Source of the DNA: Eledone cirrhosa
Taxonomy: Eukaryota
Length of the DNA stretch: 64,000 nucleotides
NCBI GenBank assembly: GCA_964016885.1
Contig: OZ024740.1
Span: 332,320,001 to 332,384,000, forward strand
Reading direction: 5' to 3'
The notes below the pieces were generated by a model that did no database searches, was not told the origin of the DNA, and was given only the letters and a program-made list of their open reading frames with translations. The translations under genes were made by a program, and so were the position numbers. This document shows positions 6,767 through 63,984 of this stretch, piece by piece; position 1 is the stretch's first letter; each line of letters opens with the position of its first letter.

Positions 6767-7030
6767 ATAAAATCAAAAGATGGTTATAAGAGTTCCATGT
6801 ATTTTATTATGCGCATTTAAAAAACAAATATCATCATGGGATGATATTTGCGTTCTCATATCATTCCATGATGATATTTGTTTTTGAAATGCGCCTAATA
6901 AAATACATGGAACTCTTTTAACCATCTTTTGATTTTATATTATTTATACTCCAGTCCTTTAAACTGTTGAGTGCTACTTATCAGATATTTGCATTGCTTT
7001 ATTGTGCTACAATAAAACTCACCTCCTACA
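6767..7030 (+). mobile_element. Fold-back mini-PLE (pLTR-like) with half HHR, hairpin and tail, in (TA)n
   Basis: Inverted arms about 6767-6846 / 6859-6940; 3' half of an HHR (GAAA-TGCGC(C/A)-TA-ATAAAATA); TACTC...GAGTGCT hairpin 6947-6975; the tail end recurs inverted at about 24657-24688. Confidence 0.75.
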
Positions 7031-8235
7031 TATATATATATATTTATTTTTATATACATATATATATATATACATATATAGATATATATATGGGTACGTG
7101 TCTGTGCGTGTGTGTGCGTTTGTGTGTGTAGGTATGTATATTCATAGATCAGGGAAATATAATTATAGAGACACAAGCGTTAAATTATCCGACCTGAGGA
7201 TGTATTTTTACGAATGTCAATTTCATCATTGTGAATCAATAGTGGCTAATAAAGTATACAGTAAAAATAATATTTGATGACCCACCCACACAACTTTGCT
7301 ATCCAAGACTGTGTGATTATATATTTACATAAAAGCCCCGAGATATTAAGTGCATCCTTTTATGAAGCCTGTAAAAGTTTAACTGATCTCACACGTAATA
7401 TTTGATTTAATGATAATAAAAGTCCGAATAATTTTCAGTTCTAATTAATTATGAACAGAAAACATCAAAGAATGAAAGCTTTTAATTATAACATATAAGG
7501 AACTTTAAATCAAAATTATATTAAAGGAATAGCACAGCCAGTCAATATAATTTGTCCACTATCAGATATATTTTATTTTCCCAAGTATACGGCATATAGC
7601 ATCATTAACAGACGAGTTATTCATTTTAGTGGGGTTTTCTAAGTTTAATTTCACACACCACTGCGTATGAAGCAAATATCATGATATATGTTCCATATTT
7701 TTATCTCCCTGTCACCTATTCATAAGAAAAGTAATAATAAAACTTCGACATGAAAAATCTTATAGAAACAGAACATTAAAAAAAAAATTGTTTTGTGCCA
7801 TGATTTTAATCCCATAAAATATACTGAACCTATTATGGCAGGATCAATATAATTTTCTGAATATAGAAAACATATATAAAGTCAATCATACACGATGGAA
7901 GAGAATTGCTGTTTTGTCCGATTAAACTTTATACTATAAAAAACAACATTTCTATTGACTCCAACATCTTCAAGAACCCAAATGGCCTATATTGTATCTT
8001 TTGGTATTTTACTTAGTGATTATGATTTTGTTTTTAATCTCTGTCTTTTAACTGGTACAACCATGAAAGCCATTGCCCTTTCTCTAATCATTTTCCTCTT
8101 CTGTTCTAATTATTTGTAATACAGGGCGTGACGGCTTATTTAAAGTCAAACTTATAGAAATAATTTTTAAGTCTATAATATATATATATATATACGATAT
8201 TAAACAAATGGAAACTACATTTATAAAACCATATT

Positions 8236-8302
8236 TATTTCATTATATATATTTTCAGGGATATCATATTAAAAATATGGTATGCCCTCTTCAGACAAAA
8301 TA
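8236..8302 (-). ncRNA. Type I hammerhead ribozyme (inverted-arm copy)
   Basis: Reverse complement of the 10801-10867 motif. Confidence 0.72.
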
Positions 8303-8902
8303 CAATATATAAACAGTTTTATAAATAAATTTGACATACCTTGGAAAATTTACAACTTCCATTTAAAAAGTTGTTATGGTAGTGAGAATGTTAATGACAG
8401 TTAGAAAGAAAGACGGAGAAAAAAGAAAAAAGAAAAAGAAGGAAAAAACGAAAATAAAGAGCGGAAGGTGAAGAAGATGAAGAAATGTATGTAAAGAGAG
8501 ATTTATGAGGGAGGGGGTACTGTAATTATTTATTTATTTATTTATTTAGTGTTAAGGATACGGGGAGAAATAAAACAAAAACAAAAATAAATAAGGAGAG
8601 GTAGATCGAGTAATATCTATTATACGAGGTGGGAGAGATAGTGGAGGGGTGAGATACAGGAGATAGTTAAAATAGCCGATACATACGTCCCGTTAAATGT
8701 AGAGGGAAGAGGAGAGGAGATATACTTAGAAATAAAAATGATAGTTTTAAAATATTATGTTTCATCAGTCTATCAATTCCTATGAATTATAATGTAAATA
8801 TCAATATTCATGAATGAGACACATATCAATAATGTGTGAAAAAATAATGACTATATGTTTAGTTTAAAAGTTCTTAGGTTTACAATCAAAAACTGAGATA
8901 AA

Positions 8903-9424
8903 ATTTTAGCACAAAATATTAATAGAATAAATAATAGGAATCTAAAACCTAGCCAAAATACCGATAATAGCATAAACAATATTCAAGTAAACAACTGTAA
9001 CTGTAGAGATAGATCTAAATGCCCGTTAAATAACAATTGCTTAGTTAAAAATATAATATACAACTGTAATGTTAAAACTGATATAAATTCTTTTAATTAT
9101 GTTGGTTCCACCTCGACAGAATTTAAACTTCGCTATAATAATCACAAGATTTCTTTCACGGATCCAAATAAAAAATCTTCAACATCTCTATCAGGCTTAA
9201 TCTGGCAACTTAAACATGATAACGTTGGATATTCAATGGTTTGGAATATAGTCTCAAGAGGGATTCCTTTTAACTCCTCCTCTGAGACATGTGACCTCTG
9301 CGCGGAGGAGATATTCTTTATACTGAAATCTAAAAATTCCCTTAATTTAGGGACCAATTTATTCAGTTGCTGCAGACATAGATTGAACTCAACTTTTAAA
9401 TATAAATATAAATTTAAAATGTAG
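8903..9424 (+). pseudogene. PLE C-terminal linker plus GIY-YIG endonuclease fragment (open frame, no start codon)
   Basis: NNCNCRDRSKCPLNNNCLVKNIIYNCNV...YVGSTSTEFKLRYNNHKISF...SSTSLSGLIWQLK...CDLCAEE...CRHR*; CxCx5C linker and IIY/YVG motifs. Confidence 0.9.
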
Positions 9425-10800
9425 TATATTTACTTAAGACTTTTAATTATTTTTAATTACTTTTTAATTATTTTTAAAATTATTTTAGAAAACTTGGCGA
9501 TAAATCTTTCGATTCCTTCAATTCTTTAAACCCTCTTCATGGGTATATAATTAATAATGTAATTAAACTACCTTAAAATGGGGATGCTCCCAAATATTTT
9601 AAGCTAGATAAACTTCTATAATAAATATAAGAGCATCTGTAGAACAACCGGGTATCCTAAAGTTTTTTTGAATGATTTCTGCTAAATAAGTTTGGTGAAT
9701 AATTTTGGATTCGTTTGGTTTTGATTCTGATTGCTTCTAATGAACTTGGCAATATATTGTCAAATAAATTGGAAGGATTGATTGATATGCGGGGCACAAT
9801 GTGTTTTTTACGGCCCTAGATATTCTGGGGAGTGAAATATTCTTGGCGTTTTTAACATTTTAGTATTTTAATATATTGATATCTGTTCTATTCTATGCTT
9901 GAACGATAATCATGTATGAGAGGGCAAGAATATTATTATTATTACTAATAATGTATATTTTATGTATATGTATGTATGTTTGTACATATATGTACGGGAG
10001 AATCTATTTTAACGCAATGAAGCTTTTCATGTGAAATAAAAATTTACAGAGCTGTTCACGTGGGCTCACATATGTCTATAATGTCAATTTGAGATAACCT
10101 TCTCTTTTTCTTTCTCTTTTTCTTTTTTCTCTTTTTTCATGAAAATACATATATACTTATGTATTTCAGTATTTTTTTGAAGTTTTATCTCAGATTTTGA
10201 TTGTAAACCTAAGAATTTTTAAACTAAACATATAGTCATTATTTTTTCACACATTATTGATATGTGTCTCATTCATGAATATTGATATTTACATTATAAT
10301 TCATAGGAATTGATAGACTGATGAAACATAATATTTTAAAACTATCATTTTTATTTCTAAGTATATCTCCTCTCCTCTTCCCTCTACATTTAACGGGACG
10401 TATGTATCGGCTATTTTAACTATCTCCTGTATCTCACCCCTCCCCTATCTCTCCCACCTCGTATAATAGATATTACTCGATCTACCTCTCCTTATTTATT
10501 TTTGTTTTTGTTTTATTTCTCCCCGTATCCTTAACACTAAATAAATAAATAAATAAATAAATAAATAAATAAATAATTACAGTACCCCCTTCCCTCATAA
10601 ATCTCTCTTTACATACATTTCTTCATCTTCTTCACCTTCCGCTCTTTATTTTCGTTTTTTCCTTCTTTTTCTTTTTTCTTTTTTCTCCGTCTTTCTTTCT
10701 AACTGTCATTAACATTCTCACTACCATAACAACTTTTTAAATGGAAGTTGTAAATTTTCCAAGGTATGTCAAATTTATTTATAAAACTGTTTATATATTG

Positions 10801-62639: not shown

Positions 62640-63148
62640 CCCAGACCCACTATAAGGGCTGGAGACACGATGTGATGGGCAGGGTGATCCACTGGCACCT
62701 GTGCAAAGTAAACAATCTACCACATTCTGAGAAATGGTATGAGCATAGGCCAGAGGCGGTGATGGAGAACAGTCAGGTGAAGGTGCTGTGGGATTTTAGG
62801 ATACAGACGGACAAAAAACTGGAACACAATAGACCTGACCTGGTGGTTGTGGACAAAGAAAAAAGATCGTGCCTGATTGTGGATGTGGCCTGCCCGTTCG
62901 ACACGAGAGTGCAAGAGAAGGAGAGGGAGAAAATTAACCGATACCAGGACCTAAAGTGGGAGGTGAAAAGGATTTGGAACTGCCATGAAGTCAAAGTGAT
63001 CCCGATTGTCATAGGCGCACTGGGGACTATCTCCAAAGGTTTCCAGGGATGGTTAAAGAAAATCGGCCCCTTCACGCTTTTTGGAACGCTTCAAAAGGCA
63101 TGCTTGCTTGGAACGGCAAGAACCCTCCGATACGTCCTGAATATCTGA
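62594..63148 (+). CDS. Dong/R4 ORF, zinc knuckle + RLE endonuclease part (after a +2 frameshift)
   Basis: CRICGE|REETVAHIVSEC, RHD, RPDLVVVD...IVDVACPFD...EK..RY, IPIVIGALG. Confidence 0.93.
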   Translation, partial: REETVAHIVSECKHLAQTHYKGWRHDVMGRVIHWHLCKVNNLPHSEKWYEHRPEAVMENSQVKVLWDFRIQTDKKLEHNRPDLVVVDKEKRSCLIVDVACPFDTRVQEKEREKINRYQDLKWEVKRIWNCHEVKVIPIVIGALGTISKGFQGWLKKIGPFTLFGTLQKACLLGTARTLRYVLNI

Positions 63149-63514
63149 GGCTGCAGGTAGTGGCTTGATATTCAATCCAACGGACTTTCCAGTTAACCAA
63201 CATCAATGACTGAGATTCAAAGAATAACAATAACAATAATAATAATAATAATAATAATAATAATAATAATAAGAAGAAGAAGAAGAAGAAGAAGAAGAAG
63301 TTTGAAAAATGTCATCTGGGACAAGATACTCTTCACTTCTCGTTCAATAAATAAACTTTGTAATTGAAAGTAATCAATATAATAATGCAGCCTCTTAAAT
63401 TATATATATATTGCCATTTGCTAATCGCTTTACTGTGTCGGTTGTCACAAACAGTAATGACCGGCATGGGCCGGTGTTTGGATTCTGTCGATCGATTGGT
63501 TATTGATTAGGCGA

Positions 63515-63627
63515 TACCCGCTGATGAAGCCGCATAAGCCGATTGTGCATTGTTGCATAATATATGCAGAGAGGTGGTGCAGTGCACCTTACTGCTGCAT
63601 TAGCGCGGCAGAAACTCGAGTCCGGTA
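63515..63627 (+). ncRNA. Type I hammerhead with long branched stem II
   Basis: (t)acccg-CTGATGA(63521)-aGCCGC..(about 70 nt)..GCGGCa-GAAA(63611)-CTCGAG-TC-cggta; followed by a TACTC...GAGTGC hairpin (63682-63718) and a tail ending in (TTA)n(TA)n. Confidence 0.85.
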
Positions 63628-63938
63628 ACCTTATAGGCACCCGTTTTACGTGTGTTGTGTTGGGGCAAATAACTATGTGTATACTCTCGTAATGTATCTT
63701 ACATTGCCTATTGAGTGCGCTGAGATACAACCGGTACTGGCATTGATAAATATGTTGGGTCCGTCAACCCTTATTATTATTATTATATATATATATATAT
63801 ATATATATATATATATATATATATACATATAAAAAAGAAAATTTCGTTCTACATGGGTGAATACAATAAATGTAATATGTGTTTTTGAAAATTGCATATA
63901 TTTTCACTATACTTGACAGTTTGGCATTTGAACAGTTT

Positions 63939-63984
63939 GCTGTACTGATGAAGGGTGATACCAAGAAACATTAGTGTCTGCAGT
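63939..63984 (+). ncRNA. Compact type I hammerhead with canonical core
   Basis: gctgta-CTGATGA(63945)-agGGTgatACCaa-GAAA(63965)-CATTAGTG-TC-tgcagt; 6-bp stem I, GUC triplet. Confidence 0.8.

Follow-up and report, generated by a model that had tools for sequence, protein, structure and literature searches.

Paired bulged hairpins in Hydra-clade Penelope-like elements of Eledone cirrhosa and their relation to insertion ends

Here we describe a pair of small bulged hairpins in the 5' untranslated region (UTR) of Hydra-clade Penelope-like elements (PLEs) of Eledone cirrhosa, together with a positional rule that relates the hairpins to the ends of the insertions these elements leave behind. The analysis concerns 64,000 nt of contig OZ024740.1 (332320001-332384000; hereafter the window), in which a first-pass annotation had pointed out 11 small elements embedded in (TA)n that shared a hammerhead ribozyme, a short hairpin and a tail, and had proposed that the hairpin is a conserved cis-acting signal. 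We find a conserved RNA element, real and apparently undescribed, in a retroelement clade that is known. The hairpin is kept across families and phyla whose flanking sequences cannot be aligned, its inner pairs covary, and insertion ends lie at fixed positions a few bases 5' of it; the unit, however, is larger than first seen, being a pair of hairpins in the 5' UTR rather than a single one. Insertions end just 5' of hairpin 1 (P end) or just 5' of hairpin 2 (D end), in both cases within ~9 nt, and it is apparently the hairpin pair and this rule that are new, the Hydra clade itself having been described. Judging from the sequence patterns set out below, the hairpins probably act in RNA, as docking sites that set two start points of reverse transcription.

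Results

A conserved bulged hairpin with covarying inner pairs

All 11 hairpins of the first-pass annotation were recovered, each within 1 nt. A strict form of the motif (RCTC-N5-35-GAGYRC) has 21 matches in the window, distributed over 18 sites, where 60 local dinucleotide shuffles gave 3.65 +/- 2.3. In 900 kb outside the window (sixteen 50-kb blocks, placed at fixed positions over six contigs, together with 100 kb of window flank) it has 117 matches, against 54-73 in eight shuffles. When TATATA was also required 35-90 nt downstream, 58 matches remained in these 900 kb against 0-5 in the eight shuffles.

Other parts of the proposed layout are less regular. The hairpin, which had been placed 45-70 nt after the GAAA of the hammerhead, lies 42-68 nt from it at nine of the 11 sites and not at the remaining two, while the tail, given as 45-80 nt, runs 43-65 nt into (TA)n at ten sites and 79 nt, without a clean (TA)n, at 45096. 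A complete type I hammerhead, expected throughout, can be drawn at five sites (10914, 14438, 14940 and 22184 by script; 63682 by eye, with a long stem II); it is decayed at 15828, 21861 and 27186, truncated within the ribozyme at 6947 and 24387, and was not seen at 45096. The hammerhead moreover falls outside the positional rule. Nor are the carriers unrelated, as had been supposed: the 11 sites collapse to eight families, one group uniting 10914, 14940 and 27186 and another 14438 and 21861. At least four further copies stand in the window (18870 and, on the minus strand, 40253, 56665 and 56392).

The motif is a bulged stem-loop, RCUC-Y...R-UN-GAGY, in which an inner helix of 1-8 bp is separated from the RCUC/GAGY stem by a bulge on the 3' side, usually of 2 nt with U first; what had been described as loops of differing length and sequence is this helix, set off by a bulge of 1-2 nt that begins with U. 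Among 56 collapsed candidates drawn from metagenomic UTRs, noise included, the 2-nt register pairs the first inner position in 41, whereas registers with a 0-, 1- or 3-nt bulge pair it in 6, 5 and 12, respectively, and inner pairs 1-3 exceed all 2000 partner shuffles, with pair 4 exceeding all but one. In a plain MAFFT alignment of 48 hairpins, selected on criteria that included the outer pair and the first inner pair, 95.6% of pair cells are paired against 80.7% after shuffling, and there are 58 double changes against 20 (cells count sequences rather than events, and the sequences are related). Inner pairs 2 and 3, which lay outside the selection criteria, show 19 and 17 double changes, and C10, U11 and C12 with their partners are invariant. 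The A-T/G-C exchange that had been noticed in the closing stem is real (GC in 42 and AU in 6 of the 48), this pair being itself a selection criterion.

A covariance model, the check suggested at the outset, recovers 10 of the 11 window sites as well as extra copies, missing the long-looped 63682; in 32 loci outside the seed set, 58 of its 60 matches lie on the sense strand. Two other descriptions of the motif were rejected: an RC dinucleotide after the stem is not universal, since TA, AA and TT also occur there, and the hairpin is not stem III of the hammerhead, but a separate element lying 42-68 nt past the GAAA. Searches of Rfam returned no match in 12 loci, only four unrelated sub-threshold matches in six loci and, for the window, no match that reached gathering score in the 150 of 243 listed. 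The annotation's remark that the hairpin seems undescribed thus stands for Rfam and for the literature searched, in which neither the hairpin, the pair nor the rule of one P and one D end was found, most subscription papers and Repbase entries being beyond the scope of that search.

The host elements are Hydra-clade PLEs

The hairpins at 10914 and 15828 have GIY-YIG open reading frames (ORFs) upstream, as annotated. The fragment at 8897-9424 has at least 150 copies in the genome at 93-97% identity, some of them in long open frames, and full-length copies consist of a pseudo-long terminal repeat (pseudo-LTR), an ORF of ~740 aa, a 3' UTR and a pseudo-LTR. These ORFs combine a YRDD-type reverse transcriptase (RT) core with a C-terminal GIY-YIG-like domain, lack an N-terminal endonuclease (EN), and are covered end to end by a profile built from 50 relatives; Pfam gave no match to the Hydra ORF, and the closest named protein match is one from Argonauta. 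The clade is defined, in the accessible text of its description (PMC8557442), by an RWK motif, DKT in place of DKG, a CxCx5C linker, and CxxC and CxH around the E and N of the EN. The ORFs of the family here called fam1 have IRWR and SDKT, with R37 W38 and D115 K116 invariant in the protein alignment. Read by eye, 8897-9424 has CNCRDRSKC, CDLC and CRH, which match CxCx5C, CxxC and CxH, and no CCHH; 14989-15591 has CSCRKPEAC, CGLC and CPH; and the N-terminal motifs resemble those of Hydra-1_Obim. By script, seven of 13 family references gave a full parse of a predicted type I hammerhead, with a U3-A8 core in two of the seven, and the other six gave none; of the 180 3' ends that these references mapped in 964 kb (window included), 142 adjoin a TA-type run. 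From ORF start to tail end the elements measure ~2.5 kb in fam3 and 3.2-3.8 kb in F1, fam0 and fam1, where published Hydra elements are 'generally' <3 kb. By these sequence features the elements are Hydra-clade PLEs in each respect tested except length, in agreement with the annotation.

Autonomous parents were found for fam0, fam1, fam2, fam3, fam5 and fam7, which account for nine of the 11 window sites; for fam6 (45096) and fam12 (63682) no hairpin 2 or ORF was found in the loci examined. Because the nine are 5'-truncated ends of these six autonomous families and lack hairpin 2, we take the window copies to be insertion stubs and not retrozymes, and short window copies without hairpin 2 are probably dead. 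Of the two origins that the annotation had offered, truncated PLEs and retrozyme-like elements, the first therefore describes these nine, while non-autonomous twin-hairpin units occur elsewhere in the genome (loci L351 and L354, below). Scans of viral contigs returned no relatives.

Several further observations concern these elements. In L319 (fam0) and L282 (F11) the hammerhead cores read UUGAGAA and UUGAUAA, with a compensated 3-8 pair instead of C3-G8, which we presume to be the 'U3-A8 variant'. A very young Hydra family (L299-L302, G000:C1:183743858 and C1692) has an 830-aa frame, many equal-scoring copies and tandem arrays of ~6.6 kb, and very long inserts interrupt its hairpins. In fam0, too, four units form an array, with a period of 3531 bp. 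Hydra-clade PLE sequences also occur in bacterial genome bins from marine hosts (L209-L226), most likely as animal DNA carried into the bins. In the window, 34305-36583 (minus strand) holds a broken Hydra-clade ORF spanning profile positions 60-701, and the 3' UTR of this element reaches (TA)n at 33693 without a hairpin, possibly as a P-type end.

A second hairpin bounds the tail

In full-length fam1 copies the end of the tail is followed, after a few bases, by a second hairpin that begins ~20 nt ahead of the ATG and has a GCUC/GAGC stem where hairpin 1 has ACUC/GAGU. This twin led to the prediction of a hairpin 2 in other families, and one was found in fam2 (degenerate), in further families, and also in fam0 and fam3; both hairpins precede the ATG in 13 families of the genome. 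Patterns anchored on the tail end (tail end, gap and RCTCY) located hairpin 2 of fam7 and fam5 with 10 and 272 matches, respectively, against none in either control, and in both families it is followed by a Hydra ORF start. The genome total with twin hairpins stands at 15 families, several of them degenerate. A first gapped pattern for hairpin 2 of fam0 gave no match, which is uninformative, as in L319 this hairpin does stand 4 nt beyond the tail. Since insertion ends fall just 5' of hairpin 2, the second of a pair, the PLE 'tail' is the spacer between the twin hairpins.

The pair extends to relatives in metagenomes and bacterial genome bins. Among 96 related loci, 51 have a long enough 5' UTR, and these contain two strict hairpins in 32 cases, one in 15 and none in four, the strict twin count superseding a permissive 38/51 that included mis-parses; reverse-complement and shuffled controls gave twins in 0/51 each. 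The spacing of the two hairpins is mostly 55-70 nt in metagenomic elements and 68-168 nt in this genome, and the distance from hairpin 2 to the ORF start is mostly 13-40 nt in the former, whereas in the latter hairpin 2 begins 30-148 nt before the ATG. In the six published Hydra consensus sequences (Craig 2021 File S7, PMC8557442, accessible part), inspected by eye, coral Hydra-2_Amil and sea-cucumber Hydra-2_Ajap end in a hairpin and a short tail, Hydra-1_Ajap (sea cucumber) begins with two hairpins, and Hydra-1_Amil stops ahead of the hairpin position.

All carriers belong to one clade, and stem III itself reads ACUC/GAGU in five Hydra hammerheads (Craig 2021 File S2, PMC8557442, accessible part) and in the 63682 element, as might be expected if the motif reflected only shared ancestry or chance, or were a confusion with stem III. 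We find this scarcely credible: the hairpin core is kept where PLE proteins are ~30-44% identical and the spacers are unalignable, its inner pairs compensate, it is separate from the hammerhead and it predicts insertion ends, while the enrichment over shuffles, the twin-hairpin controls and the covariation refute such an explanation.

Insertion ends pair one P with one D

An inverted arm lies upstream in 57 of 78 hairpin rows, and 45 of these 57 arms end between -8 and +1 of hairpin 1. Among the 142 TA-adjoining ends mapped with the family references, 58 are P, 64 are D and 20 fall elsewhere; leaving out F4, whose AT-rich loop draws spurious matches, 116 of 128 are at P or D (54 P, 62 D, 12 other), the two 11-nt windows that define these classes making up ~5% of reference length. 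Junctions share short TA microhomology with the target, typically at -6 to -4 (range -9 to -2). Outward-facing end pairs combine P with D in 57/58 cases (33/34 untargeted, 24/24 targeted) and never P with P, the sole other pair being D+D, 4.8 kb apart; independent site choice would give about half P+D (p ~2e-9 for 33/34). Metagenomic loci are consistent with this wherever the contig extends past the 3' copy: among 11 mapped copies, the end lies 0-6 nt short of hairpin 1 in four and 3 nt short of hairpin 2 in one, with four at contig ends, one at -21 and one that runs on. D-ended stubs lack hairpin 2, and D ends number 50 in 800 kb over 13 families, which scales very roughly to 190,000 in the 3.0-Gb genome.

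Pairs of P and D are also what would be predicted if priming took place once, at D, and the complementary DNA (cDNA) then folded back so that the second arm was copied from the first and ended at hairpin 1. Such fold-back is a variant of the self-priming model that the accessible text of PMC3846280 proposed for head-to-head PLE repeats, and it would suit the many stubs that are near-perfect palindromes (in 19 of 46 pairs, from four families, the arms reach within 30 nt of each other). The D arm extends further 5' in 13 of these pairs, however, and the P arm in 14, nine of them with clean junctions (e.g. 2184 versus 201 nt); fam2, with no full unit, was left out of this comparison. Because the P arm reaches further in those 14 pairs, it was not copied from the D cDNA, and fold-back also leaves unexplained a second hairpin of the same design at an equal distance from D. 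We consider it very unlikely. In four of five families the two arms of an insertion are more alike than arms of different copies, but element age and the presence of arms that do not fill the 42-nt comparison window both confound this result, and we place no weight on it.

The predicted hammerhead cut site lies 25-60 nt upstream of hairpin 1. In fam0, where it is at 25 nt, stubs mostly reach 55-70 nt upstream of hairpin 1 and so pass the cut site, and the template was therefore continuous there.

Two units without an ORF

Two loci provide natural experiments. L351 (G000:C2:216011656-216012484) is a single insertion built from a 205-nt fam5 unit with both hairpins, which starts 3-4 nt past the predicted hammerhead cut, ends 4 nt before the ATG, and has neither ribozyme core nor ORF. 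About 2.3 units make up its D arm, which stops 4 nt short of hairpin 2, and ~1.7 units its P arm, which stops 5 nt short of hairpin 1; the unit junction occurs four times in the genome, always at this locus. The locus is most simply read as a case in which a single circular RNA was the template of both arms and the hairpins were sufficient in trans. L354 (1062-2800, minus strand) is a 1311-nt non-coding partial tandem with a hammerhead, hairpin 1 and a degenerate hairpin 2, in which two hammerhead cores 1311 nt apart amount to a complete hammerhead in consecutive units. This unit matches 0/120 Hydra-like proteins, has relatives at two places (L295 and block C28_40), and represents a candidate non-autonomous family. 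The same locus contains a 466-bp tandem from 5037 with a hammerhead core in each unit.

These units bear on whether the hairpins might mainly be 5' UTR signals for translation or packaging (operator-like, or for cap-independent entry), with insertion ends simply following the position of the protein. The closeness of hairpin 2 to the ORF start in metagenomic elements, and the location of both hairpins downstream of the hammerhead cut site, would agree with such a role. The distance to the ATG nevertheless varies over 30-148 nt while that to the insertion end stays within ~9 nt, and units without an ORF retain the hairpins and obey the end rule. As the main function it appears quite unlikely, although a role in translation or packaging could coexist with one in setting start sites.

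Discussion

A proposed double-headed priming scheme and the evidence for and against it

If the hairpins are docking sites in RNA, transposition might proceed as follows. The RT/GIY-YIG protein, probably in the form of two subunits, would dock on the two hairpins of a single RNA, a (TA)n tract would be nicked on both strands, and each 3'-OH would pair with UA 3-9 nt upstream of one hairpin and prime its own cDNA. The two antisense cDNAs would stop independently and join head to head, mostly with small overlaps or gaps, to give an inverted pseudo-LTR that has a tail on one side. Unless both RTs roll on a circle, the trailing one would need to displace the first cDNA. As a D-ended insert loses hairpin 2, the element must regain a template in which the ORF is followed by both hairpins, and cutting 25-60 nt upstream of hairpin 1 would leave a linear monomer with its hairpins at the 5' end and little to copy. 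Hammerhead cleavage and circularisation could regenerate the template and would permit more-than-unit copying, with a circle or an uncut tandem restoring what cleavage removes. A prediction of the two-copy complex (residues 1-480, without alignment) scored zero and gave no answer either way. The complete scheme, in which one circularised, hammerhead-cut RNA with two docking hairpins meets a dimeric RT/EN in double-headed target-primed reverse transcription, would explain the tail, the inverted pseudo-LTR, partial tandems and retrozyme-like satellites, and would make a ~200-nt twin-hairpin module enough for copying any RNA into (TA)n; we offer it tentatively, as falling a little short of an even chance.

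End positions alone cannot separate a cut from a start, and the hairpins might instead work in DNA, where the GIY-YIG EN would recognise them in a donor or a long cDNA and nick a few bases upstream, P and D then being processing sites. Craig 2021 ascribes the tail to EN-mediated resolution (PMC8557442, accessible text), and earlier work cited in the open sections of Frangieh 2024 (PMC11167929) found the D. virilis tail to be needed for EN recognition and cleavage of plasmids. However, both ends show TA microhomology to the target, as expected of priming, G-U pairs outnumber A-C in the sense strand, the tail ends of the anole element map to RT start sites in vitro (PMC11167929, same sections), and hairpin 2 would need to be copied and then removed every time. 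We regard processing at the DNA level as unlikely.

Docking in RNA, with two start points, is itself opposed by a number of points. The excess of G-U over A-C is only 8 to 2, a modest sign of a sense-RNA fold, counted on UTR windows in place of a noisy whole-locus count. Hairpin 2 is degenerate in several families: that of fam2 has only a 4-bp GCAC/GUGC stem, that of fam3 a 1-nt A bulge and an 85-nt insert, and those of F7 and F8 a mismatched outer pair. By eye, in the accessible consensus sequences of PMC8557442, a copepod element has near-matches at both ends with an outer-stem mismatch, and Hydra-1_Obim of O. bimaculoides gave no clear match. The stem-loop of the Anolis element PAc differs in sequence, with no RCUC/GAGY core in the 96 nt printed (PMC11167929). 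The D window of fam2 was widened to -13 after the data had been seen, and no partner end was detected for 57 of 125 untargeted P or D ends. Finally, the circular-RNA step has the single locus L351 behind it, and a tandem donor absent from the assembly could also explain that locus.

The PLE transposition cycle has been called still undefined, and no single account covers the requirement for more-than-unit donors, the part played by the hammerhead, the tail and the inverted pseudo-LTR (PMC8557442, PMC4209133 and PMC11167929, in their accessible parts). The twin cis-element and the rule of one P and one D make the origin of the tail and of the inverted repeats testable with a small RNA and one protein, and they supply a first candidate for a signal of RT capture in Hydra elements; the RT class of these elements is sister to telomerase. 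Curators gain exact element boundaries and a sequence tag for these elements; many apparent 'MITE-like' palindromes (resembling miniature inverted-repeat transposable elements) in the genome are such PLE stubs.

Comparison with known systems

The elements share with Hydra-clade PLEs, including Hydra-1_Obim, as presented in the open text of PMC8557442, a single ORF with RT and C-terminal GIY-YIG, the clade motifs, a type I hammerhead and (TA)n, as well as partial tandems, an inverted 5'-truncated copy and a one-sided tail. That text describes no hairpin pair, the words 'hairpin' and 'stem-loop' occurring 0 times in its main part, and ascribes the tail to endonuclease resolution; its units are generally <3 kb with tails of 30-40 bp, compared with as much as 3.2-3.8 kb and 43-65 nt or more here.

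The Poseidon element PAc of Anolis cuts and extends both target strands, uses two internal RNA start sites that bound the tail, and is a predicted dimer (PMC11167929, accessible part). These two-start data make P and D plausible as start sites, and further likenesses are AT-rich targets and a hammerhead that is dispensable for insertion in vitro. PAc differs in belonging to another clade and in having one AC-rich stem-loop inside the ORF, and neither paired hairpins nor the one-P-one-D rule is reported in that part of the source.

Metazoan non-LTR retrozymes are tandem hammerhead units thought to be mobilised by PLEs via circular RNA (PMC7229834; bioRxiv 10.64898/2026.07.22.740005; accessible texts), which L351 and L354 fit, and circular templates for PLEs were proposed earlier (PMC4209133, accessible text). 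In those portions the retrozyme texts name no RT-capture cis-signal, for which the twin hairpin is a candidate. The window copies, in contrast, are single or head-to-head truncated ends and not tandem ribozyme units, and nine of the 11 sites belong to six families with Hydra ORFs, whereas retrozymes have none. L351 is tandem but without a hammerhead core, while L354 has the complete core in consecutive units, as retrozymes do.

In the twin priming of L1, both target strands prime cDNA on one RNA and an inversion results, the second primer annealing at a variable internal site and the arms not overlapping. Here both starts are fixed and close, and the arms overlap in template coordinates. Small bulged hairpins also position an RT on its RNA in hepadnavirus epsilon and in the boundary hairpins of telomerase RNA, a likeness that we offer as analogy only. 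PLE RTs group as sister to those of telomerase (PMC8557442, accessible text).

Features of the window

Table 1. Coordinates of the PLE-derived features in the window
Feature	Position	Strand	Description
fam5 insertion in (TA)n	6767..7030	+	P arm inverted, on left; D arm: hammerhead (3' half only), hairpin 1, tail of 55 nt
Hairpin 1, fam5	6948..6974	+	ACUC/GAGU, UU bulge, inner stem of 4 bp
P arm, fam1 insertion	8193..8918	-	ends 4-5 nt 5' of hairpin 1, adjoins (TA)n; inverted hammerhead 8294-8253
5'-truncated Hydra-clade GIY-YIG endonuclease ORF	8897..9424	+	CxCx5C linker, CxxC, CxH
Minimal type I hammerhead, palindromic stem III	10809..10859	+	
Hairpin 1 (10915-10935) and 61-nt tail to D site	10915..10997	+	hairpin 2 next in full-length copies
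P arm, fam7 insertion	13959..14116	-	end 7 nt 5' of hairpin 1
D arm, fam7	14276..14503	+	hammerhead core 14350; hairpin 1 GCUC/GAGC 14438-14460; 43-nt tail
fam1-group stub	14840..15016	+	hammerhead; hairpin 1 14941-14962; 54-nt tail
fam3 stub	15124..15892	+	end of GIY-YIG ORF (to 15591); decayed hammerhead core 15764; hairpin 1 15828-15849, 1-nt bulge; 43-nt tail
fam0 two-armed stub (not in first-pass annotation)	18752..18941	+	hairpin 1 18870-18895
fam7-group stub	21793..21975	-	decayed hammerhead; hairpin 1 21861-21839
fam2 stub	22118..22390	-	hammerhead core 22249; hairpin 1 22183-22163; 45-nt tail
fam3 palindromic stub	24070..24219		minus-strand arm stops ~5 nt ahead of (absent) hairpin 1
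fam0 two-armed stub	24247..24458	+	both arms cut inside hammerhead stem II; hairpin 1 24387-24412; 46-nt tail
fam1-group stub	27106..27340	-	decayed hammerhead core; hairpin 1 27185-27164
fam0 stub (not in first-pass annotation)	40182..40319	-	hairpin 1 40253-40228
fam6 stub	45000..45205	+	hairpin 45097-45125; no hammerhead seen; no linked ORF; partial copy 44502-44588
Two fam0 stubs (not in first-pass annotation)	56310..56808	-	hairpin ends at 56640 and 56349
fam12 stub	63410..63783	+	long-stem-II hammerhead, core 63521, stem III ACUC/GAGU; separate hairpin 1 63683-63718; 65-nt tail; no linked ORF

The window also holds elements of other kinds. A palindromic stub of an abundant PLE at 36773-37163 (hammerhead core 36969), labelled Neptune-like by eye from its Cx4CxxC-type linker, belongs to a family with the same two fixed ends, ~56 nt apart, and a tail without an RCUC/GAGY hairpin; this layout rules out that the motif is general to PLEs. 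Another hammerhead family is represented at 6214-6396 (core 6279), its copies ending in (CA)n, not (TA)n, and without the hairpin. At 60702-63148 (plus strand) lies a non-LTR retrotransposon with an RVT_1 domain, a downstream Cys/His and PD-type frame and (AAT)n flanks, which we take to resemble R4/Dong. An open frame at 31430-31879 (minus strand) with the stretch ...VHYLYDSNEG presumably resembles an exon of a glutamate-receptor N-terminal domain, and the window could lie within an intron. Long inverted repeats of other families are also present at 24796-25199, 26273-27811, 54935-55310 and 26770-26953.

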